From Chthonomonadales bacterium (GTDB lineage Bacteria > Armatimonadota > Chthonomonadetes > Chthonomonadales > Chthonomonadaceae), in NCBI GenBank assembly GCA_038217285.1, contig JBBQPO010000169.1:1-13304 (forward strand): 13,304 nucleotides of DNA, written 5' to 3'. Below, piece by piece: positions 2,066-13,304 of this stretch (its first letter is position 1; each line of letters starts with the position of its first letter). The notes below the pieces were generated by a model, which saw only the letters and a list, made by a program, of their open reading frames with translations, was not told the DNA's origin and ran no database searches. The position numbers were made by a program, and so were the translations under genes.

Positions 2066-3154
2066 ATGGCTCCGTCTCAGACACTGGAACAGGTGAGCAG
2101 TGGTCGGGAAAACAATCTCGATTTCCTGCGCTTTGCGCTGGCAACTCTCGTCGTGTTCTCCCATAGCTTCGCGTTGCCGGGCTACGCGGCCCTCGAACCG
2201 CTTCGCCGTCTCACCAGAGGGCAAATCGATGGCGGCTCGTTGGCCGTCGATTTCTTTTTTATCATCAGTGGATTTCTGGTCACACAGAGTTGGCAGCGCA
2301 GCAAGGGGGTGGGCGACTATCTCAAAAAGCGGGTGTTGCGTATCTATCCCGGCTTTCTTGTGACGGTGGCACTGTGTGGGCTGGTCGTGGGACCGTTGGG
2401 AGCCGACAGCTTTGCCGCCTACTGGCACACATTTCATCCGGTACGCTTTCTGTACAACACGGCCCAACTGCAGTTCGTGCTGCCGCCTGTGTTCACGCAT
2501 CTTGCCTATCACAGCGCCAACGGATCCCTGTGGACGATCCGCAATGAGTTTCTGTGCTATCTGATGGTGGCCGTCTTCGGCTTGCTGGGCCTGTATCGCT
2601 TTCGGATCGTCCTTCTGGGACTGTTCGGCGCGACGCTGTTGCTGTACATGCGCGAGGTCTATGGACATATCCCGTTCTGTCGCGGTATTGTCTTCCCCGT
2701 GATCGGGCAGTTGGATATGTGGCCTCGCTATCTGACGCAGTATCTGGCGGGCATGTGCTTCTATCTCTATCAGGATCGCATTCCTTATGCCCCGCGCTGG
2801 ATCGGGATAGGGGCGGTCATCGTGGCGACTGCATGCTTCCTGCCGGTGCTTGCGGCGGTGTTGCCGCTCTGCGGAGCGTACCTGCTGTTTGCCTTCGCGT
2901 TCCGTCGCAAGCCGGATTTGCACCATTTCGCGGAACGGGGCGATCTCTCCTACGGCATCTACCTCTATGCCTTTCCCATCCAGCAACTGCTTTTGTTGTT
3001 TGTCGCTCCACACATGGCTCCACTGCTGCTATTTGGGCTGGCGTTCCCGCTTACCGCGTTGGCGGCCTGGGCAAGCTGGCATCTCATAGAAAAACCCTGC
3101 CTACGCTTCAAAACCACGACAGCTCCGCAGCGTGTCGCTGTCGAGCAAAAGTGA
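2066..3154 (+). CDS. Acyltransferase family 3 (OafA/YrhL-like) integral membrane O-acyltransferase, no SGNH domain
   Basis: Motifs RENNLDFLRFALA-LVVFSH, GSLAVDFFFIISGFLVTQS, KRVLRIYPG, NGSLWTI-NEF-CY, GDLSYGIYLYAFPIQQ and SWHLIEKP; about 10 hydrophobic segments; 362 aa. Confidence 0.93.
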   Translation: MAPSQTLEQVSSGRENNLDFLRFALATLVVFSHSFALPGYAALEPLRRLTRGQIDGGSLAVDFFFIISGFLVTQSWQRSKGVGDYLKKRVLRIYPGFLVTVALCGLVVGPLGADSFAAYWHTFHPVRFLYNTAQLQFVLPPVFTHLAYHSANGSLWTIRNEFLCYLMVAVFGLLGLYRFRIVLLGLFGATLLLYMREVYGHIPFCRGIVFPVIGQLDMWPRYLTQYLAGMCFYLYQDRIPYAPRWIGIGAVIVATACFLPVLAAVLPLCGAYLLFAFAFRRKPDLHHFAERGDLSYGIYLYAFPIQQLLLLFVAPHMAPLLLFGLAFPLTALAAWASWHLIEKPCLRFKTTTAPQRVAVEQK

Positions 3155-3239
3155 GGCTGAAGCGCCTGACCAGCCAGCATGAGCGGCATTTTAGCCCACG
3201 TCCGAGGATCACCCCGAAGTCCTCACAGGCACTCTGCTG

Positions 3240-3387
3240 CGTGAATCTTCTGGAGGGGCGCACACTCTGCTATAATGTTAGCGGGAGCCGCGCGCCTGGA
3301 AAGACGGCGCCTACAGCCACTGGGACTGCCCGTCAACCACGGGGGCCTGTCGTAAGGCGACTGCCCTCTCGGTGATGCGAACACCAA
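3240..3387 (+). repeat. Copy 1 of a diverged ~150-bp promoter/5' leader repeat (inverted copy at 8720-8869)
   Basis: Hand alignment of 3257-3354 to the reverse complement of 8851-8754 gives 80/98 identities with no gaps. Similarity continues on both sides with single-base gaps. Confidence 0.9.
3268..3276 (+). promoter_or_regulatory. Extended -10 promoter TGcTATAAT upstream of the beta-propeller/phosphoesterase gene
   Basis: Perfect TGnTATAAT; conserved as TGcTACAAT in the second repeat copy. Confidence 0.75.
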
Positions 3388-3434
3388 TCCATCAACTTTA
3401 CCAGCAAGAAGGACCATCCGTATTCGGAGTCGCT

Positions 3435-6038
3435 ATGAATCGTCTTGAATCGACAACGCCTCGGTCGCGCCGCGCCATCGGAAAACGCAGGATCCTGACT
3501 CTGTTCACGCTCTTGCTCGGTATCGCTGGGCTGGCCTATGCCCGAGACCAGAAGAGCGATCTCCACCTGGGCAAGCAGGCGGACGGCAGCTTCCTTGTCT
3601 CGACGGAACAGCGGATCGAACCGGGAGCGATCGCTTTCGACGGTCGCCCCATCGACATGGCCCTGCATCCGACGAAACTGCTTCTAGCGGTTCTGAACCA
3701 GCACAGCGTGCTACTGATCTCGCCGAAAGGCGTCGTGCCCGATTCCAGTGTATTCTTACGGCACGGGGCGGGATTTCGAGGCGCTCTCTGGTCACCGGAC
3801 GGCAGTCGGCTGTTCGTCAGTGAGGCAGACGGATGGGTCCAGGAACTGGACCTTCAGGGCACACAACTCGTGCTCGGGCCTACTCTCCCTGTGGCGCCGC
3901 CGGGAGCGAAGGGTAATCCACGTCCGGGCGGCATGGCCATCACCCAGAACGGCGCTCGCCTGTTCGTCGCGGTAGCCGACCGCAACGCCGTGGCCGAGAT
4001 CGATCTGGTCACGAATCTCTGGGTGCGCGAATATCCCGTTCAGAACCTGCCGTTCTCGGTGAAATTGAGCCAGGACGAAAAGACCCTGATCGCGACCAAC
4101 TGGGGCGGACGGGAGGTCACCGACGACGACGATCAGGCGGAGAGCGGCAGGGCCACGATCGTCGTGGACCCGCGAGGGGCCGCCGCCTCGGGAACGGTCT
4201 GCCTCATCCGACGCGACAGCGGGAAGACGAAATGCCTGAAGGTCGGGCTTCATCCCACCGCCATCGCGATCCAGGACGACCGCGCCTTCATCACGAACTC
4301 CGCGAGCGACAGTCTGACAGAGATCGATTTGACGGAGCGGAGAGTGGTGCGCACGATCCCACTTCACTGGGGCGCGATGCATCTTTTTGGCAGCATGCCC
4401 TGCGCGTTGGCAATTCGCGACGGGATCGCCTATGTCTGCAACGGCGGGGACAACGCCGTCTGCGAAGTAGACCTGACGGAAGGCCGTGTGCGTGGATTTC
4501 GACCTGCCGGCTACTTCCCAGTAGCCATAGCGCTAAGCAAAAACAGTCGCTTCGCGTTTGTGCTGAACACCAAGGGCAACGGCTCCGTCCGCCGAACGAG
4601 TATTGGTAAGCCAGGCAACGCACACGATTTTCAGGGGACCGTCTCTGTCGTGGATCTGTCGGTGGATCTGAAAGCCGCGACCGCAAAGGTCGCCGCCGAC
4701 AACGGCTGGAATCGGGATCGGAGCGCGCTGCATCCGCGTCTGGCGGTCTACCACGGCGCGATACAGCATGTGCTCTATATCATCAAAGAGAACCGAACCT
4801 ACGACGAAGTGTTCGGGGATCTACCCCAGGGCAACGGCGACCCGAAACTATGCCATCTCGGGGAGAAGTACACTCCCAACCATCATGCCATCGCCCGGCA
4901 GTTCACGCTGTTCGACAACGCCTATGTCGCCGGAACCAACAGCACCGATGGGCATCAATGGTGTACCCAGGCTATGGCGAACGACTATATAGAGCATTTT
5001 TATACCGGCTACCGGACCTATCCATTCGGGGGCGACTGCGCTATGGCGATCTCCAGCGGTGGGTGCCTGTGGGATGCGGCGCTGAAGAAGAAGCGGACAT
5101 TCCGGGACTATGGGGAGTTCTGCGACTCTCATCTGGCCTCTTTCACGCCGAGCGTGAACACCTGGCTGGAGGTCTGGAACGACCGGATGAGCGGCCGACA
5201 TGCCATCGAGCCTCGCTGCGGGACACGGATCGCCGGCCTCCGCCCCTATCTCTGTCGGCGGGTCGTGCAGTGGCCCCTGCTGCAGAGCGACCAGGCGCGT
5301 GCCGACGTCTTTATCGGGGAGTACGAAAAATTTAGCCAGTCGGATACGGTGCCGAATCTGATGATCCTCACCCTGCCCTGCGACCACACGGAAGGGCGCA
5401 ACCCGAACTATCCCAAGCCCCAGTCGATGATCGCGGACAACGATCTGGCCCTTGGGCGTGTTGTGGAGGCGGTATCGCGTAGTCCCCAGTGGAAGAACAC
5501 CTGTATATTTGTGATCGAAGACGATGCGCAGTTCGGCCTGGATCATGTGGATGGCCATCGGACCGTCTACTTCGCCCTCAGCCCCTACACACGCCGGAAA
5601 TATGTCGATCACGAGCTGGCCAATACGGTTTCGATGGTGCGCTCGATCGAGATGATGCTGGGACTCGACCCGATGAACCGCTTTGATGCGCTCACCCCTC
5701 CACTCGCCAACTGCTTCACGGACAGTCCGGATCTTTCGCCGTACACCACGGTTCCCAATAACGTTCCGCTGGATCAGATGAACCGTTCGCTCCGCCATCT
5801 GCACGGCAGTGCGCGCCTCTGGACGCAACGGTCGTTGGCGCTCGACTGGAGCGGGCTCGACCGCGCGGATCCGCAGAAGCTCAACGAGATCGTCAACTAT
5901 ACACTGCGCGACCAGGAGAGTGCGTACCTCGCGCGGGGAGGGGCTTCAAACGCCGGTCGTGAAAAGCCGGGACCGCTTACGCGCGGCGCGGCGCGGCAAG
6001 CCGGGTGTCGAGGGGTGCCGACCTTGCAGTGCCCGTAA
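3435..6038 (+). CDS. Secreted YVTN/YncE-type beta-propeller + phosphoesterase (alkaline phosphatase superfamily) bifunctional protein
   Basis: ATG 3435 follows GGAG (3426-3429). Signal peptide RRILTLFTLLLGIAGLAYA. Propeller repeats: WSPDGSRLFV, VGLHPTAIAI, AFITNSASDSLTEIDL, AYVCNGGDNAVCEVDL. Phosphoesterase motifs: HVLYIIKENRTYDEVFGD, STDGHQW, DHT, EDDAQ-G-DHVDGHR. Confidence 0.9.
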   Translation: MNRLESTTPRSRRAIGKRRILTLFTLLLGIAGLAYARDQKSDLHLGKQADGSFLVSTEQRIEPGAIAFDGRPIDMALHPTKLLLAVLNQHSVLLISPKGVVPDSSVFLRHGAGFRGALWSPDGSRLFVSEADGWVQELDLQGTQLVLGPTLPVAPPGAKGNPRPGGMAITQNGARLFVAVADRNAVAEIDLVTNLWVREYPVQNLPFSVKLSQDEKTLIATNWGGREVTDDDDQAESGRATIVVDPRGAAASGTVCLIRRDSGKTKCLKVGLHPTAIAIQDDRAFITNSASDSLTEIDLTERRVVRTIPLHWGAMHLFGSMPCALAIRDGIAYVCNGGDNAVCEVDLTEGRVRGFRPAGYFPVAIALSKNSRFAFVLNTKGNGSVRRTSIGKPGNAHDFQGTVSVVDLSVDLKAATAKVAADNGWNRDRSALHPRLAVYHGAIQHVLYIIKENRTYDEVFGDLPQGNGDPKLCHLGEKYTPNHHAIARQFTLFDNAYVAGTNSTDGHQWCTQAMANDYIEHFYTGYRTYPFGGDCAMAISSGGCLWDAALKKKRTFRDYGEFCDSHLASFTPSVNTWLEVWNDRMSGRHAIEPRCGTRIAGLRPYLCRRVVQWPLLQSDQARADVFIGEYEKFSQSDTVPNLMILTLPCDHTEGRNPNYPKPQSMIADNDLALGRVVEAVSRSPQWKNTCIFVIEDDAQFGLDHVDGHRTVYFALSPYTRRKYVDHELANTVSMVRSIEMMLGLDPMNRFDALTPPLANCFTDSPDLSPYTTVPNNVPLDQMNRSLRHLHGSARLWTQRSLALDWSGLDRADPQKLNEIVNYTLRDQESAYLARGGASNAGREKPGPLTRGAARQAGCRGVPTLQCP

Positions 6039-6147
6039 CTCTTCCTCGCTGAACGGCTTCAGCGCATGCCACCCATACTGTTGGAGGATCATAGCATTGA
6101 GTTCCAAGCTTTACAATTCGGATACTGGGGAGAAGCCGGAGGCAGTC

Positions 6148-7848
6148 GTGCCGCCGCATTCTGATAAAAAGCGCAGGGTTCTTGCCATTCATCCCCTGTT
6201 CTTCGCGGCTTTTCCCCTTCTGGCGCTTTACGCACAGAACGTCGGCCAAATACCGTTCCATGAGGTCCTCCGGCCGCTCGGGATGGCGTTGCTGGGAACG
6301 ATGGCGGTCTGGCTCGTCTTCCTGCTGCTTACCCGACATGTGCGGAAGGCGGCTCTTGCCGCTTCCGTCGTCGTCCTTCTATTTTTTTCGTATGGGCATA
6401 TTGTTAACCTGCTGCCGCAGGGGCTCCAGAGCCTCGTTATGCCAGCCTCCGTCCTCGTACTGGCCGCTCTGCTTTTCATTATCTTGAGGGGACGGAAGCC
6501 TCTCTACGATGTGACGGCCGTCCTGAATCTGGTTGCTGTCGTTCTCCTCATTCCGTCCTGTTGGACCATCGTGAGCGGTCTCGACAGCAATGCACGGTCG
6601 CTGCACGAGGCTAAACATTCGGAACTCGATGAGTTCGTTCCGGGAGTTCGCGCCGTAGCGACGATCAATCGCCATCTCTCCGACGCCCCAAAAGATGTTC
6701 CGGATGTCTATTATATCATTCTGGACGCTTACGGCCGGGCGGATCGACTGCGCACGTATTACGGGTACGATAACACTCCCTTTATCGATGCTCTGAAGAA
6801 ACGCGGCTTCTATCTCCCCAGTCATAGCGAGCCAAACTATAATCAGACGCCTCTCTGTCTGTCAAGCGCCCTCAGCATGAACTACCTGGTGGATCGTCCC
6901 GGAAAACGCCTGAGCCCGGAAGTGGTACGGCAAATGGTAGATGACAATGCAGTGGCGGCTTGCCTACGCAAGCAGGGATATCACTACGTCGTCGTCTGGT
7001 CCGGACTGGAAGTATCGCGAGTCACAACGGCGGATCTGGTGTTCAACAACTCGCCCGATCTCTCGATCCTCGAAAGCGAGTGGATCAGCCGGACGCCGAT
7101 CGGCACGCTGGCTTCGCACCGGAAGGCCCGCTACAATCGGCACCGCCTCCGTATTCTCGGCGGTTTCAGCGGTCTGGAAGATGCGGCCAGTCTGCCCTAC
7201 CCGAAATTTGTCTTCACGCACATTCTGGCCCCGCATCCCCCTTTTGTCTTCGGCGCAAACGGGGAACCACACGATCCGGTAGGCACGCTGAATCTCTCGG
7301 ATGCGTCGGATCTACTCAAACTCATTACCAAGGACGAGTACCGCCGCGGTTACATCGCCCAACTCCAGTATGTCAACAAGCGTACCCTCGAAGCCATCGA
7401 CATGATCCTGCGAAAGTCCCGCCACCGACCGATCATCATCGTGCAGGGAGATCATGGTTCCCGCATGAGCCTGAACTGGGAGAGCCTGGCCCAGACAGAT
7501 TTACGGGAACCGTTTTCGAACCTCAATGCCTACTACGTACCCGATAAGGTGCGCCGTGATCTCTGGGACACGATCACTCCCGTCAACTCGTTCCGCGTCG
7601 TGCTCAACGATGTCTTCGGTGAGAAATATCCGCGTCTGCCGGATCGCAACTTCTACTCTACCGAGAGCCATCCCTTCGACTTTATAGAAGTGACCGATCA
7701 ACTCGCCCGAATAGCGAGTACGTCGGATCGGATGCACTCCGCCACTGGCGCGGGCGGGCAAAACGATGGAGAAGCACCTCCTAAGAGCACGCCAAGGCGT
7801 GTCGATTCGATCCGGTTTGGAGGGGCGTCGAATACGGGGGATCCCTAG
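6148..7848 (+). CDS. Membrane-anchored sulfatase-like / LtaS-EptA-like (alkaline phosphatase superfamily) transferase
   Basis: GTG 6148 follows GGAGG (6138-6142); the ORF-track start at 5809 overlaps the upstream gene. About five N-terminal TM helices precede PDVYYIILDAY, NYNQTPLCLSS (Thr at the nucleophile position; no CxPxR), FVFTHILAPHPPF and IIIVQGDHG. Confidence 0.85.
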   Translation: MPPHSDKKRRVLAIHPLFFAAFPLLALYAQNVGQIPFHEVLRPLGMALLGTMAVWLVFLLLTRHVRKAALAASVVVLLFFSYGHIVNLLPQGLQSLVMPASVLVLAALLFIILRGRKPLYDVTAVLNLVAVVLLIPSCWTIVSGLDSNARSLHEAKHSELDEFVPGVRAVATINRHLSDAPKDVPDVYYIILDAYGRADRLRTYYGYDNTPFIDALKKRGFYLPSHSEPNYNQTPLCLSSALSMNYLVDRPGKRLSPEVVRQMVDDNAVAACLRKQGYHYVVVWSGLEVSRVTTADLVFNNSPDLSILESEWISRTPIGTLASHRKARYNRHRLRILGGFSGLEDAASLPYPKFVFTHILAPHPPFVFGANGEPHDPVGTLNLSDASDLLKLITKDEYRRGYIAQLQYVNKRTLEAIDMILRKSRHRPIIIVQGDHGSRMSLNWESLAQTDLREPFSNLNAYYVPDKVRRDLWDTITPVNSFRVVLNDVFGEKYPRLPDRNFYSTESHPFDFIEVTDQLARIASTSDRMHSATGAGGQNDGEAPPKSTPRRVDSIRFGGASNTGDP

Positions 7849-8699
7849 GGTGAGTTTGCAGTGCGCTCCCAGTATGCCGCGTCGGAATCTATCCTGACGA
7901 GTTCGTCTGTAATGCCATGCTCCTGACGGTAGTCATCGACGGCCTGTCTGCAGGCGACCAGATGGTAATATTCGTCGATGATCGCATAACCACCCACCGA
8001 TAGCTTTGGATAGATGGACTTCAGACTGTCCATCGTGGACTCGTACATATCCCCGTCCAGCCGCATCACGGCAACCTGCTGCATGGGGGCGGTAGGCAGC
8101 GTGTCTTTGAACCAACCCTTGAGGAAACGCACCTGGTCGTCCAGCAGGTCATAGCGGGCAAAATTTGCCTGCACTTCTTCCAGCGAAACCATGAGATCCT
8201 TCCAGGTATGGTAAGGAATGTCGGCATCTAGCGGGTACTCCTTGTCGGGTGGGGGCAGACCAGCGAAGCTATCGGCCCCGTAGACGATGCGATCTCGCAC
8301 GCCGTAGGCTTTGAGGACGGCCCGCATCAGGATGATCCCTCCACCACGCCAGACACCCATCTCGATCAGGTCGCCCGGCACCTCGTTTCTCAACACCTGC
8401 TCGATACAGAACTGAATGTTGTCCAGACGCTGGATATTCAGCAGTGTCTGTGACATCACCGGCCAATCGTTGCCTTCCAGCCGTTTCGCAGGATCGAACT
8501 GTTTGGGGATGACGATCCGCATGTTGAACGCTTCCGCAGCCACTTTGATCAATTTCTTGACCGGATGCCTCGGCTCGATATAGATGACCTCCTTGTCCCC
8601 ATAGATCATATTAAGCAGGGAGCGTTTCATCAGATCCAGGTAGAGCGCACGCCCGTCGCCCGAATCCGTTGTAGAAGGCAGCCTATCAATCGTATTCAT
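7845..8699 (-). CDS. TylF/MycF/NovP-family SAM- and metal-dependent sugar O-methyltransferase
   Basis: ATG 8699 follows GGAG; the upstream 52 codons of the track ORF are the promoter/leader repeat. Motifs LYLDLMKRSL, VPGDLIEMGVWRGG, ADSFAGLP, GWFKDTLP, RLDGDMYEST and GGYAIIDEY. Confidence 0.92.
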   Translation of the reverse strand: MNTIDRLPSTTDSGDGRALYLDLMKRSLLNMIYGDKEVIYIEPRHPVKKLIKVAAEAFNMRIVIPKQFDPAKRLEGNDWPVMSQTLLNIQRLDNIQFCIEQVLRNEVPGDLIEMGVWRGGGIILMRAVLKAYGVRDRIVYGADSFAGLPPPDKEYPLDADIPYHTWKDLMVSLEEVQANFARYDLLDDQVRFLKGWFKDTLPTAPMQQVAVMRLDGDMYESTMDSLKSIYPKLSVGGYAIIDEYYHLVACRQAVDDYRQEHGITDELVRIDSDAAYWERTANSP

Positions 8700-8719
8700 C
8701 TCTTGCTCCAAAAGGTGAG

Positions 8720-8869
8720 TTGGGTTGCACATTACCGAAAGGGCGATCACTTGTAGGAAAGGCACTCGAGGTTGAGGGGCATTTTCAGCGGCTGTAGGCG
8801 CTACCTTTCCAGTCGTGCGGCTTCCGCTAACATTGTAGCAGAGTGCGCGCCACATTCAGAAGGTTTACG
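8720..8869 (-). repeat. Copy 2 of the diverged promoter/5' leader repeat, upstream of the TylF gene
   Basis: The reverse complement reads ...GGCGCGCACTCTGCTACAATGTTAGCGGAAGCCGCACGACTGGAAAGGTAGCGCCTACAGCC..., matching 3257 onward. It begins at the stop codon of the NoeA-like gene. Confidence 0.9.
8832..8840 (-). promoter_or_regulatory. Extended -10 promoter TGcTACAAT for the TylF gene
   Basis: TGnTACAAT on the minus strand, at the position homologous to TGcTATAAT at 3268-3276. Confidence 0.7.
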
Positions 8870-10259
8870 TTGGAGGATGGCCGCGCAGGAGGTAGAGCGT
8901 ACGTTCGCTGTCCGGTACGGGAATAGAGCGAACAATGTCGAAGCAGCGGCAGAAGGCCGTCTCGAAGCCGGATACGGTGTAGTCCGTAAAAATATCTTCC
9001 CGACTGGCGAGGAGACGCTGCACCTGGGAGTCGCTTTTGGGAACGAACTCGATGATCAGCCACTCCCCAAGGCTCCGAAAGAACCGCGCGACGTTGTCGA
9101 GGGGAACGTTGTTGGCGATCGCCAGATGATGGATCAGCGCGAGCGCCAGCAGCAGGTCGGCAGGCCCTCGGGCGCTTAGAGAGCGGCGCTCCCGGAGCGC
9201 CCAGCCCAGGTCCGGACTCGGGTTGGTGAGATCCCCCAGAAGAGGCAACAGATGTTTCTCTCCGTTCGCCCGACCCTCCAGATAGTTCTTCTCGACGGCC
9301 GCTGGATCGATATCCATGGAGACCGTCTGTATGCCACGACCACTGGCGACCCGACTGAACAGGCCCGTGTTCGCGCCGAGATCCCACGCGGTTTTGGGCG
9401 CAGGAACAACGGTGTCCAGTAGTTCGGCCACCAGTCGGCGCTTGCCGCCCATGGCCTCATCGGAGTAGTTTGTCTCGGTGTAGTATTCCGCCCAGGTGGT
9501 GCCGGAAGGCTTCCATGTCTGACTCCGAACGGCGCCCTCCAGGCTGTCGATCAGACCCAGTAAGGCGGTGCGGCTCATACCGCCCGACCCTCCGGAACGG
9601 CGTACCGCCTCACCCTCGTAGCGTTTCTGCGCCGCGCCGTGCAGATGAATATGTGTCAGCAGTCCGACCTGGAGCCAGGTGCTGCGTGGCAGCAGGCGAC
9701 TGGCCAGGTCCAGCGGAATACCATCTATGTGGACGCGCAACAACTGCTGCAGGCGCACGTCAGTCCGGCTCATGAGGGCCAGCGGCGCCAGGAAATGCTG
9801 GCAGAACTGTTTGTAGGCCGTCCAGGGGCTGCCTTCTTCTACCTTTTCAAAAGAGAGCGTATCGATCAGCGTCGGCTTGCCGTCGCGGAACTGGATGTTG
9901 TAGGCGCTCGCGTCCTTGAGCGTCATCCCGAATCGAAGCGCTTCCTTCTGAATCTGCAGGGTCGCGTGGGCGGCGTCTTTGAGCTGACTGAAACACCATT
10001 CATAGGGATACGAGATAAAGGGAACCCGTTCCGGTCGGAGGATGCGGTAGGCGTCCGGAGTAAGCCGACTCTCGACGCTCTCCTCGATATGGGAGATCAT
10101 CAGGCCCGACTCTACCAGCGCCTGATAGAGTCCGGACCCGGTGAGAAGATCATACTCTTCCTTATAGCTGCGCTGCACCTGACGTAAAAGCGTCTCTTCA
10201 CGATAGAAGATGAACCCGCTGGGATCCCGGAAAGAGCCCGGGTCTACCGACAGGCTCAT
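8865..10259 (-). CDS. NoeA-like protein: kinase-like N-terminal domain + C-terminal class I SAM-dependent methyltransferase
   Basis: Family motifs GSFRDPSG, FISYPYEWCFSQLKDAA, LKDASAYNIQF, LIDTLSFE, QFCQHFLAPL; SAM motif I WDLGANTG; LALALIHHLAI; IIEFVPKSD. The ATG overlaps the upstream TGA (ATGA, 10256-10259). Confidence 0.88.
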   Translation of the reverse strand: MSLSVDPGSFRDPSGFIFYREETLLRQVQRSYKEEYDLLTGSGLYQALVESGLMISHIEESVESRLTPDAYRILRPERVPFISYPYEWCFSQLKDAAHATLQIQKEALRFGMTLKDASAYNIQFRDGKPTLIDTLSFEKVEEGSPWTAYKQFCQHFLAPLALMSRTDVRLQQLLRVHIDGIPLDLASRLLPRSTWLQVGLLTHIHLHGAAQKRYEGEAVRRSGGSGGMSRTALLGLIDSLEGAVRSQTWKPSGTTWAEYYTETNYSDEAMGGKRRLVAELLDTVVPAPKTAWDLGANTGLFSRVASGRGIQTVSMDIDPAAVEKNYLEGRANGEKHLLPLLGDLTNPSPDLGWALRERRSLSARGPADLLLALALIHHLAIANNVPLDNVARFFRSLGEWLIIEFVPKSDSQVQRLLASREDIFTDYTVSGFETAFCRCFDIVRSIPVPDSERTLYLLRGHPPT

Positions 10260-10492
10260 TCTTCGCCGCGCTTTTCCATCCCGATTTTGCCCGCAAACAT
10301 TTTCGCCGTGGAAGCCTTGAGGCGCTGCCAGGAGAGTTTTATCGTGAAGGCCAGGCCGAGAAGCCCTGCCATCAACATTTGCAGCACGTAGCTGCCGCTG
10401 CCCGCGTCGATATAGGCGTGTGCCGGTGCGACGGTTCCGATCAATACGGCTGCAATTACTAGATATACCATGTTACTTGTACTCCTCGTCAT
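10256..10492 (-). CDS. Small membrane protein of the 'AY(I/L)DPG(T/S)GS' type (signal peptide + one TM helix + basic tail)
   Basis: VYLVIAAVLIGTVAPAHA|YIDAGSGSYVLQMLMAGLLGLAFTIKLSWQRLK: an AxA signal-peptidase site directly before the motif, then a TM helix and a basic tail. An alternative start is ATG 10471, which has GAGGAG 10 nt upstream. It is coupled to the NoeA-like gene by an ATGA overlap. Confidence 0.85.
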   Translation of the reverse strand: MTRSTSNMVYLVIAAVLIGTVAPAHAYIDAGSGSYVLQMLMAGLLGLAFTIKLSWQRLKASTAKMFAGKIGMEKRGEE

Positions 10493-10737
10493 TAGGATAG
10501 ACGTACCACGCATAGCAAGAGTTCATCAACAGCGCGAACGAAGCCAGGAAACATTTCACGGAACTTCTGCATGTCGTACCGGATTGACGCGAATGCATGG
10601 CAGTCGTTACGGCGGCTTTCGCGCGGTTTGAGGGAACGTCGCCGTTTCCCCGGCTCTTTTGCGGAGCGTCGCACCGCGAATTTGACCGTCGCCGCTCCGT
10701 CTGCGGTACTATATTGTGTCAGGGAAGGAGTCGGAGG

Positions 10738-11424: not shown

Positions 11425-13304
11425 ATGCAAGAGAACGAACAACCAACGGAGTCCACGCTGCAGACTCCTGCAGCCGCCGTGACGATACAGATTCCCGACT
11501 TCGCGGTGGTGGTGCTGATCGGTGTGAGCGGCAGCGGCAAGTCCACCTTTGCCCGTAAGCATTTTCTGCCGTCCGAATGCCTCTCCTCGGATGCGTTTCG
11601 GGGAATGGTCAGCGACGACGAGAACGATCAGAGCGCGACCAACGACGCTTTCGAGGCGCTGCACTATATGGCGGAGATGCGCCTGCGTCGGCGCAGGATC
11701 GTCGTGATCGATGCGACGAATGTGCAGGAGGCGGCCCGAAAGCCGCTGGTCGAGCTGGCGCATCGCAACGACGTGCTGGCCGTCGCGATCGTCCTGAACG
11801 TGCCGGAGCGAACCTGCCAGGATCGCAATCGGGATCGCCCCGACCGGCAGTTCGGGCCGCATGTCGTCGGCAATCAGAGCCGTCAGTTGCGCCAGTCTTT
11901 CCCAAACCTGCGTCGCGAAGGCTTTCGGTACATCTTCAAGTTCAATGAGGCGGAGATCGCGAATGTCGGTATCGAGCGCGTGCCGCTCTGGACGGATCGC
12001 CGCAAGGAGGCCGGGCCGTTCGACATCATCGGCGACGTTCACGGCTGCGGTGACGAACTGAGGGCCCTGTTGACGCAGCTCGGGTATGCCGAGCAGGAGG
12101 GCGCGTGGAGGCATGCGGAGGGGCGGCGCGCCGTGTTCGTGGGGGATCTGGTGGATCGAGGCCCGAAGGTGGTGGAGACCGTGCGCCTGGTGCGGAGCAT
12201 GATGTGGGCGGGCGCGGCCCTCTGCGTCCCAGGCAACCACGATACGAAACTGAGCAGGGCCTTGAAGGGCAATCCTGTGGCGAAGACGCACGGACTGATG
12301 GAGAGCCTCGCCCAGATCGAAGCCCTGCCGGAAGAGGAGCGGAATGCGTTCACGCAGGACTATCTCCGCTTCGCGGAGGATCTGGTGTCGCATCTCTGGC
12401 TGGACGGCGGCGCGCTCTGTGTGGCCCATGCCGGAATGAAAGAGGGTTACATGGGGCGGGCGTCGGGGCGTGTACGCGACTTCGCGCTGTATGGCGAGAC
12501 GACGGGCGAGACGGACGAGTTCGGCCTGCCGGTTCGCTATCCCTGGGCCCAGGACTACCGGGGGAAGACCTCGGTGGTCTATGGGCATACGCCGGTGCCG
12601 GAGGCCGAGTGGCTGAATAACACGATCAATCTCGACACCGGCTGCGTCTTCGGCGGCAAACTCACCGCGCTGCGATGGCCCGAGCGCGAACTGGTGCAGA
12701 TTCCGGCGGCGCGGACCTACGCGGAACCCGTGCGCCCATTCCTGCCCGTCGCTGCGGAACCCGAGTCGGTGGAGACGTCGGACGTCTCGCTGCAGTGGCA
12801 GCACGACGAGCTGCTGCGCGCGGAGGATGTGCTGGGCAAGCGGATCGTGACGACTCGCCTGATGCCGAGTGTGATCATCCCGGCCGAGAACGCGGCGGCG
12901 GCGCTCGAAGTGATGAGTCGCTTCGCGGTCGAACCGCGCTGGCTGCTCTATCTGCCGCCCACGATGTCGCCTTGTGAGACGGCTCCGGCAGGCGAACTGC
13001 TGGAACAGCCTGCGGAGGCGTTCGCCTACTTCCGAAATGTGGGAGTCACGGAGGTCGTCTGCCAGCGCAAGCATATGGGCAGCCGTGCAGTCGTCGTGAT
13101 CTGTCGCGATGCCGAGGCCGCCCGGCAGCGGTTCGGCGCGACGACAGGCGAGATCGGGCAGTGCGTCACCCGCACCGGGCGTCGGTTCTTCGACGATGCT
13201 ACGCTGCATCACGGGCTTCTGGAGGAGTTTGGCGCCGCTCTGGAGCGCGCGGGCTTCTGGGAGGAGTTCGGAACCGACTGGGCCTGTTTCGACTGCGAGC
13301 TTAT
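11425..13304 (+). CDS. pnkp: Bacterial polynucleotide kinase-phosphatase-ligase (Pnkp, RNA repair), truncated by the window end
   Basis: Translated by hand; absent from the ORF track because there is no stop in the window. ATG 11425 follows GGGAG. P-loop LIGVSGSGKSTFARKHF, then SSD-FRGMVSDDENDQSAT and IDATNVQ. Metallophosphoesterase motifs IIGDVHGC, FVGDLVDRGP, PGNHD, VAHAG, YGHTP, LDTGCVFGG. Ligase region ALEVMSRFAV, YLPPTMSP, KHMGSRAV. Confidence 0.96.
   Translation, partial: MQENEQPTESTLQTPAAAVTIQIPDFAVVVLIGVSGSGKSTFARKHFLPSECLSSDAFRGMVSDDENDQSATNDAFEALHYMAEMRLRRRRIVVIDATNVQEAARKPLVELAHRNDVLAVAIVLNVPERTCQDRNRDRPDRQFGPHVVGNQSRQLRQSFPNLRREGFRYIFKFNEAEIANVGIERVPLWTDRRKEAGPFDIIGDVHGCGDELRALLTQLGYAEQEGAWRHAEGRRAVFVGDLVDRGPKVVETVRLVRSMMWAGAALCVPGNHDTKLSRALKGNPVAKTHGLMESLAQIEALPEEERNAFTQDYLRFAEDLVSHLWLDGGALCVAHAGMKEGYMGRASGRVRDFALYGETTGETDEFGLPVRYPWAQDYRGKTSVVYGHTPVPEAEWLNNTINLDTGCVFGGKLTALRWPERELVQIPAARTYAEPVRPFLPVAAEPESVETSDVSLQWQHDELLRAEDVLGKRIVTTRLMPSVIIPAENAAAALEVMSRFAVEPRWLLYLPPTMSPCETAPAGELLEQPAEAFAYFRNVGVTEVVCQRKHMGSRAVVVICRDAEAARQRFGATTGEIGQCVTRTGRRFFDDATLHHGLLEEFGAALERAGFWEEFGTDWACFDCEL

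Follow-up and report, generated by a model that had tools for sequence, protein, structure and literature searches.

In the citrate utilization case of Escherichia coli, a promoter was reportedly captured by rearrangement. Promoters that recur within a genome have also been described as putative mobile promoters, defined as upstream sequences of non-paralogous genes in one genome that share at least 80% identity over at least 50 nt (Nijveen, Matus-Garcia and van Passel 2012, PMC3575422). The published families are mostly pairs and mostly have no Rfam match, their mean identity is 92%, and the screen that yielded them deliberately left out duplicated promoter-gene modules (PMC3575422). Here, we describe a pair of upstream sequences in a window of 13,304 nt (the whole stretch of DNA analyzed) from a Chthonomonadales bacterium, contig JBBQPO010000169.1 of assembly GCA_038217285.1. 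Each block holds a putative promoter and a long 5' leader; copy A occupies positions 3244 to 3391 on the plus strand and copy B positions 8865 to 8716 on the minus strand. The ungapped core has 80 of 98 positions identical, which places the pair within the identity range of putative mobile promoters. Relative to the start of the downstream gene, this core spans -178 to -81 at A and -152 to -55 at B, so the overlap with the published window of -150 to -50 is complete for B and amounts to 70 nt for A. An earlier note, made from the sequence alone, had read the pair as a candidate cis-regulatory RNA.

Copy A lies between an Acyltransferase_3 gene (2066 to 3154, plus strand) and a phosphoesterase-family gene, here called PE (3435 to 6038, plus strand; PF04185, E 4.9e-11). 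According to Pfam and NCBIfam, PE has beta-propeller repeats toward its N terminus and an acid-phosphatase/PLC-type domain toward its C terminus. Proteins combining a beta-propeller with a phosphoesterase are highly paralogous, with 12 matches in this genome and matches in all 41 other genomes of the family. The leader of A is separated from the PE start codon by a spacer (3392 to 3434, plus strand), the last part of which (3422 to 3434) carries PE's own ribosome-binding region. Downstream lies a sulfatase-like gene (6097 to 7848, plus strand; presumed TTG start at 6097 after GGAGGA), which is probably cotranscribed with PE. Its match to PF00884, scored on the longer open reading frame (ORF) 5809 to 7848, has an E value of 2.1e-5 and 24.4 bits, below the cutoff of 25. 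Copy B starts at the stop codon of a 464-amino-acid ORF (10259 to 8865, minus strand) and precedes a TylF-family O-methyltransferase gene (8699 to 7845, minus strand; PF05711, E 7.7e-100), whose start codon is separated by 16 nt including a GGAG (8715 to 8700, minus strand) from the last position homologous to A. TylF and the sulfatase-like gene are convergent, and both stop codons fall within one palindromic CTAG (7845 to 7848). The only terminator-like hairpin found for TylF, a consensus match only, lies 64 nt past the gene (7781 to 7768, minus strand), inside the sulfatase-like gene. The Pfam assignments (PF04185 versus PF05711) confirm that the two copies precede unrelated genes. The description of these genes as envelope-modification genes in the earlier note is not established by their domains, which are a beta-propeller with an acid-phosphatase/PLC-type domain, a subthreshold sulfatase-like domain, and TylF. 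Further along the window, the 464-amino-acid ORF and an 85-amino-acid ORF (together 8865 to 10513, minus strand) have no Pfam or NCBIfam match and are syntenic in genus relatives with 79 to 87% amino acid identity, and a PNKP RNA-repair gene with AAA_33, Metallophos, and PNKP_ligase domains (11425 to 13302) runs past the window end.

A repeat search of the window recovered the two copies as an inverted repeat pair of 98 nt (3257 to 3354 and 8754 to 8851, 82% complementary), the same 80-of-98 core that the earlier note had reported for these two noncoding segments; the window contains 15 further inverted pairs, each 20 to 27 nt long. Over the full blocks, MAFFT aligned A and B with 115 of 150 columns identical, the 2 gap columns being scored as mismatches. 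The homology stops at about 3391/8716, and past column 151 identity drops to 6 of 21 columns. All the motifs named earlier were found in both copies, namely, the extended -10 boxes, GCGG-(G/A)AG-CCGC, CTGGAAAG, GCGCCTACAGCC, TGCCCnTCAACC, and GCCCTyTCGG. The earlier statement that most of the conservation lies downstream of the -10 box stands only in part. The leader does share homology as far as 3391, but identity is greatest in the promoter and the initial ~25 nt of leader (35 of 40 in columns 21 to 60) and declines toward the leader's 3' end, with 13, 14, and 10 identical columns in later windows of 20, so that the conservation is not concentrated in the downstream leader. The GCGG-GAG-CCGC element, a 4-bp GC hairpin or palindromic DNA at the presumed 5' end of A (3281 to 3291, plus strand), has its counterpart in B at 8827 to 8817 on the minus strand; the stem is unchanged and the sole difference lies in the loop, and this invariant GC stem speaks neither for nor against structure. 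The AGCAAGA heptamer occurs on both sides (3404 to 3410 for A and 8707 to 8701 for B), outside the well-aligned block, and by reading of the sequences the two line up only if a 3-nt gap is permitted. A 9-nt sequence abutting the -10 box of copy A, CACTCTGCT (3263 to 3271), recurs exactly 33 nt upstream (3230 to 3238), just beyond the A-B homology.

The extended -10 boxes reported for both copies were confirmed as TGCTATAAT in A (3268 to 3276, plus strand; hexamer 3271 to 3276) and TGCTACAAT in B (8840 to 8832, minus strand). Each has the TGn and TATAAT-like hexamer upstream of a gene that characterize sigma-70-type extended -10 promoters. The pattern TGNTAYAAT has 3 matches in the window versus 0.23 expected. 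Genome-wide, TGNTATAAT has 132 matches versus 14 to 47 for controls of the same composition, and 56% of its sites lie at most 250 nt upstream of the start of a long ORF, versus 16 to 40% for the controls. This enrichment of TGnTATAAT and its placement before ORF starts make the promoter reading of the boxes reasonable. No -35 element passed a consensus scan at either copy. From the positions of the boxes, promoter activity is predicted for both copies, with start sites near 3283 on the plus strand and 8825 on the minus strand. A small leader ORF was considered and rejected: the frame that begins with the ATG within the -10 box is 26 codons long in A and 10 in B, it has no ribosome-binding site, and the A-B substitutions show no period of 3 (8/5/6).

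The search for further copies suggested in the earlier note, in the genome and its relatives, returned A and B alone. BLAST against the same genome found the two copies (A against B at E 3.9e-25) and seven other matches with E values of at least 1.6, and nhmmer likewise gave two matches (E 3e-52 for A and 3e-53 for B), the next best having an E value of 2.8. Among relatives searched by BLAST, 0 of 60 had a copy. A profile of the element (R1), which scores A and B at 152 bits, reached 18.3 bits at best in the 41 other genomes of the family, with chance-like alignments. In the other genomes of the order, 1 of 67 gave a match at an E value of at most 0.01 (G006, E 0.005 per genome); it lies inside a 525-amino-acid ORF, and we found no credible copy in this set. 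Loci with PE or TylF homologs in the family (n = 19) held no copy (best E 0.25), nor did the syntenic loci in three genus relatives (best E 0.1), and 16 local-alignment tests upstream of homologous genes gave lowest counts of 1/200 and 8/200. A core pattern scanned against one-genome-per-species contigs gave 21 matches, about chance by our own estimate and with little extension past the pattern, and a second pattern gave none in metagenome contigs. Of the metagenomic TylF loci, 0 of 80 had a copy of the leader, the closest TylF there being only 62% identical. Plasmid and phage collections held no match to the element, and an origin from a plasmid or phage was dropped as a candidate on that basis.

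Comparison with genus relatives shows that the surroundings of both copies have changed. In G002 and G003, the gene order is PE (plus strand), sulfatase-like gene (minus strand), 464-amino-acid ORF (minus strand), and 85-amino-acid ORF (minus strand), and A and B both sit at synteny breakpoints relative to this arrangement in the genus. The PE orthologs of G001, G002, and G003 (77% amino acid identity) have extended -10-like boxes of their own, TGGTATAAT in G001 and G002 and TGGTATACT in G003, which by our count on the sequences begin about 96 to 119 nt upstream of the start codon. Upstream of PE, the sequence common to these three genomes and ours is limited to the 13 nt directly preceding the start codon; this 13-mer, ATTCGGAGTCGCT, is common to the PE spacer here and to G002, and 1 of 500 shuffles scored as well. 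Since the relatives have their own PE boxes and share only these 13 nt, the leader of A is not the ancestral PE leader. The spacer downstream of the 464-amino-acid ORF in genus relatives is unrelated to B, and the idea that B is the native spacer at that site was rejected, as the matching spacer of G002 is dissimilar (192 of 500 shuffles scored as well). With both the PE leaders and the 464-amino-acid ORF spacers of the relatives unlike A and B, neither copy is ancestral where it now stands.

We aligned contigs of four public DNA runs, X1 to X4, to positions 3100 to 9000 of the window; X1 contains a fraction of 0.92 of the sampled words and may be the sample from which this genome came. No run recorded as RNA was found to contain the stretch. 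The contigs of X2 and X4 span the junction from TylF through B to the 464-amino-acid ORF as in this genome. In X3, the arrangement is different. One assembled contig from this single metagenome run (4,098 nt, depth 21.2), an assembly rather than individual reads, carries an A-type leader, TylF, and PE in that order and all in one direction. It begins with window positions 3100 to 3391 (5 differences and 1 gap), followed by 17 unplaced nt (1711 to 1727 of the contig). Next comes TylF, which runs from the start codon (8699) as far as 7869; over these 831 nt it has 120 differences and 2 gaps, corresponding to a nucleotide identity of about 86%. After a further 13 nt, the contig continues with window positions 3394 to 4920 (73 differences in 1,527 nt). 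The A-type leader carries an extra T after 3265, within the presumed -35/-10 spacer of A. This contig is not what a chimera induced by repeats would give, since its leader is A-type to the very end of the homology and the junction of TylF with 3394 is not at a repeat. A second X3 contig (one contig, depth 18.7) joins 6072 to 8874, with about 130 other letters between them by our own arithmetic; X3 thus is without the 2,801-nt segment 6073 to 8873, comprising the sulfatase-like gene, TylF, and copy B, between PE and the 464-amino-acid ORF. X3 retains the sulfatase-like gene beside other sequence (6074 to 7695, 74 differences). The locus of PE, TylF, and the 464-amino-acid ORF is structurally polymorphic among closely related strains.

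The arrangement in X3, together with the end of the A-B homology at about 3391, indicates that the leader most likely belongs to TylF. The distance from the end of the leader to the ATG is 17 nt in X3 and 16 nt in B, and because this spacing matches, we prefer a loss of TylF from behind A in this genome to a gain in X3. A single rearrangement cannot explain both arrangements, since the TylF of X3 is only about 86% identical to the one here; an extra transfer or an old duplication is needed as well. As a calibration, the coding sequences of PE in G001 and G002 are 74.5% identical, and 130 of 175 aligned positions of their leaders are identical. Set against these values, the 77 to 82% identity of A and B is close to the ~86% nucleotide identity of the TylF pair, and no special constraint is needed to account for it.

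The account that we favor, and consider probable, is a lineage-specific duplication and reuse of a promoter and leader in which one copy has lost its methyltransferase gene. A and B would be diverged copies, 77 to 82% identical, of one module consisting of an extended -10 promoter and the conserved ~110 nt of the untranslated leader of a TylF-type gene. The module of promoter, leader, and TylF would have been duplicated or horizontally reacquired, and one TylF would then have been lost. Copy B would still serve TylF, having come or stayed with a gene about 86% identical to that of X3. Copy A, which has no TylF in this genome, would have had its leader fused to the spacer that lies between TylF and PE in X3, and would now drive PE and the sulfatase-like gene. 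One leader would stand before unrelated genes because TylF sits between the A-type leader and PE in the related strain, and the likeness of A and B would reflect common descent instead of a shared RNA sensor. RNA polymerase with the housekeeping sigma factor is expected to start near 3283 and 8825, and the two transcripts would converge on the overlapping stops at 7845 to 7848. At the 5' end, the 4-bp GC hairpin might shield the mRNA or act as an operator. The common promoter may place both units under similar transcriptional control. The duplicated promoter and leader of the earlier note are supported, as is a possible common response of the two transcription units.

That the leader is instead an undescribed structured cis-regulatory RNA, perhaps linked to SAM or SAH, since TylF uses SAM, and kept in both copies by selection, seems to us unlikely. 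In a search of the whole window at an E value of at most 10, Rfam 15 gave one match, elsewhere in the window and not at the leaders, and the elements alone under laxer filters each gave a single weak match, in both cases on the opposite strand and to different families (12.4 versus 56 bits and 16.8 versus 67.7 bits). With no right-strand match at that threshold and no family at gathering score, a known RNA family was ruled out, and the Infernal search proposed earlier ended with no family for either leader. Single-sequence folds of the two leaders were no better than shuffles (z of -0.21 and +0.45), the A-B consensus fold was no better than column shuffles (z of -0.47, +0.40, and -1.01), and a scan for GC-rich hairpins followed by a T run found no terminator-like site in the leaders, the two hits in 3000 to 9200 both lying outside them. 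The best case for structure is one helix, 3319 to 3325 with 3367 to 3373 on the plus strand (in B, 8789 to 8783 with 8740 to 8734 on the minus strand), which keeps its 7 bp through four substitutions: one change is compensatory, two are wobble-compatible, and none breaks a pair. It is the sole candidate covarying helix. Its score was reached in 35 of 1,000 column shuffles for helices of at least 7 bp and in 75 of 1,000 for at least 6 bp, it was chosen post hoc, and it is drawn from two sequences only; we regard the covariation as marginal. The same 3' strand has a competing 6-bp pairing with 3283 to 3288 that is also kept in both copies, and two such pairings are what a switching leader would be expected to have. 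The invariant 12-mer GCGCCTACAGCC adjoins a 3-nt patch in which every base is substituted between A and B, and the only indel among the differences listed for B in X2 and X4, one base missing at 8776, falls on the variable base of TGCCCnTCAACC; both would suit an RNA under selection. Against this, the local GCCCG/CGGGC hairpin of A is absent from B by reading of the folds, identity decays smoothly away from the promoter, and no homolog was found in the other genomes searched or upstream of the TylF and PE homologs searched. A more specific version, in which the ~110-nt leader is a lineage-restricted RNA whose 3367 to 3373 strand pairs alternatively with 3319 to 3325 or 3283 to 3288, thereby switching the TylF, phosphoesterase, and sulfatase-like genes, and which selection has kept at PE after the loss of TylF, is in our judgment highly doubtful. 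The riboswitch, antitermination, or protein-binding RNA of the earlier note found no positive support in the Rfam searches, the fold and consensus-fold z scores, or the terminator scan, and the leader as a regulatory RNA is unsupported. That note had itself named the outcome that would count against it, a pair of copies whose substitutions are random with respect to pairing, and this is essentially what we see, as only two copies were found and the substitutions are not clearly biased toward pairing.

Two readings would make the DNA itself mobile. The block could be a small promoter-bearing element, MITE-like or another kind of mobile promoter, inserted twice independently, as might be suggested by its position upstream of nonhomologous genes, by the synteny breakpoints at both copies, and by a similarity that falls within the published definition of mobile promoters (PMC3575422). 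Such an element would, though, be represented by two copies only, with no match in plasmids, phages, the other genomes searched, or the metagenome pattern scan. We found neither terminal inverted repeats nor direct repeats flanking the copies, and a MITE was ruled out on these grounds and on the copy number. In X3, moreover, TylF is joined just where the homology ends on its 3' side, as would be expected of a module tied to a gene more than of a free element, and two free insertions appear quite improbable to us. Alternatively, the copies could be the recombination arms of a switch that flips the intervening 5.4 kb. They are indeed inverted and flank three genes, and the joints 3391/8699 and 3394/7869 in X3 change strand. 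An identity of about 80%, however, makes a poor substrate for homologous recombination, and the X3 joints are unlike those of a simple inversion, since the sequence after TylF is that from 3394 on instead of the sulfatase-like gene. The TylF of X3 is, in addition, only about 86% identical, and no such joint occurs among those listed for X1, X2, and X4. We consider an inversion switch very improbable.

A leader common to unrelated genes can be misread as a joint RNA sensor, and at this locus the duplication of a module with the loss of one gene, the reading we prefer, would suffice. It took no more than a single contig assembled from a related strain to expose such a history. The locus would be a neat example from nature of a promoter and leader being reused, thereby rewiring a phosphoesterase operon, with no new mechanism. 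Should the leader prove to be a structured regulator, its distribution would be very narrow.

With the riboswitches and cis-regulatory leaders of Rfam 15, A and B share a long 5' untranslated region and conserved blocks downstream of the promoter, and they differ from them in having no family match, no fold signal beyond chance, and no phylogenetic spread. The likeness to putative mobile promoters is closer, as the pair stands upstream of non-paralogous genes (phosphoesterase versus TylF) with at least 80% identity over at least 50 nt and has no Rfam match. Its identity is below the published mean of 92%, and the TylF behind the A-type leader in X3 makes the history paralogous, so that A and B are probably a duplicated promoter-gene module of which one gene was lost. 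Promoter capture offers the other comparison: PE appears to have lost its own promoter, for which genus relatives retain a TGGTATAAT-like box, and is now led by a TylF-type promoter and leader. It differs in that we see neither an insertion sequence nor a tandem amplification here and in that the captured piece includes ~110 nt of foreign leader.
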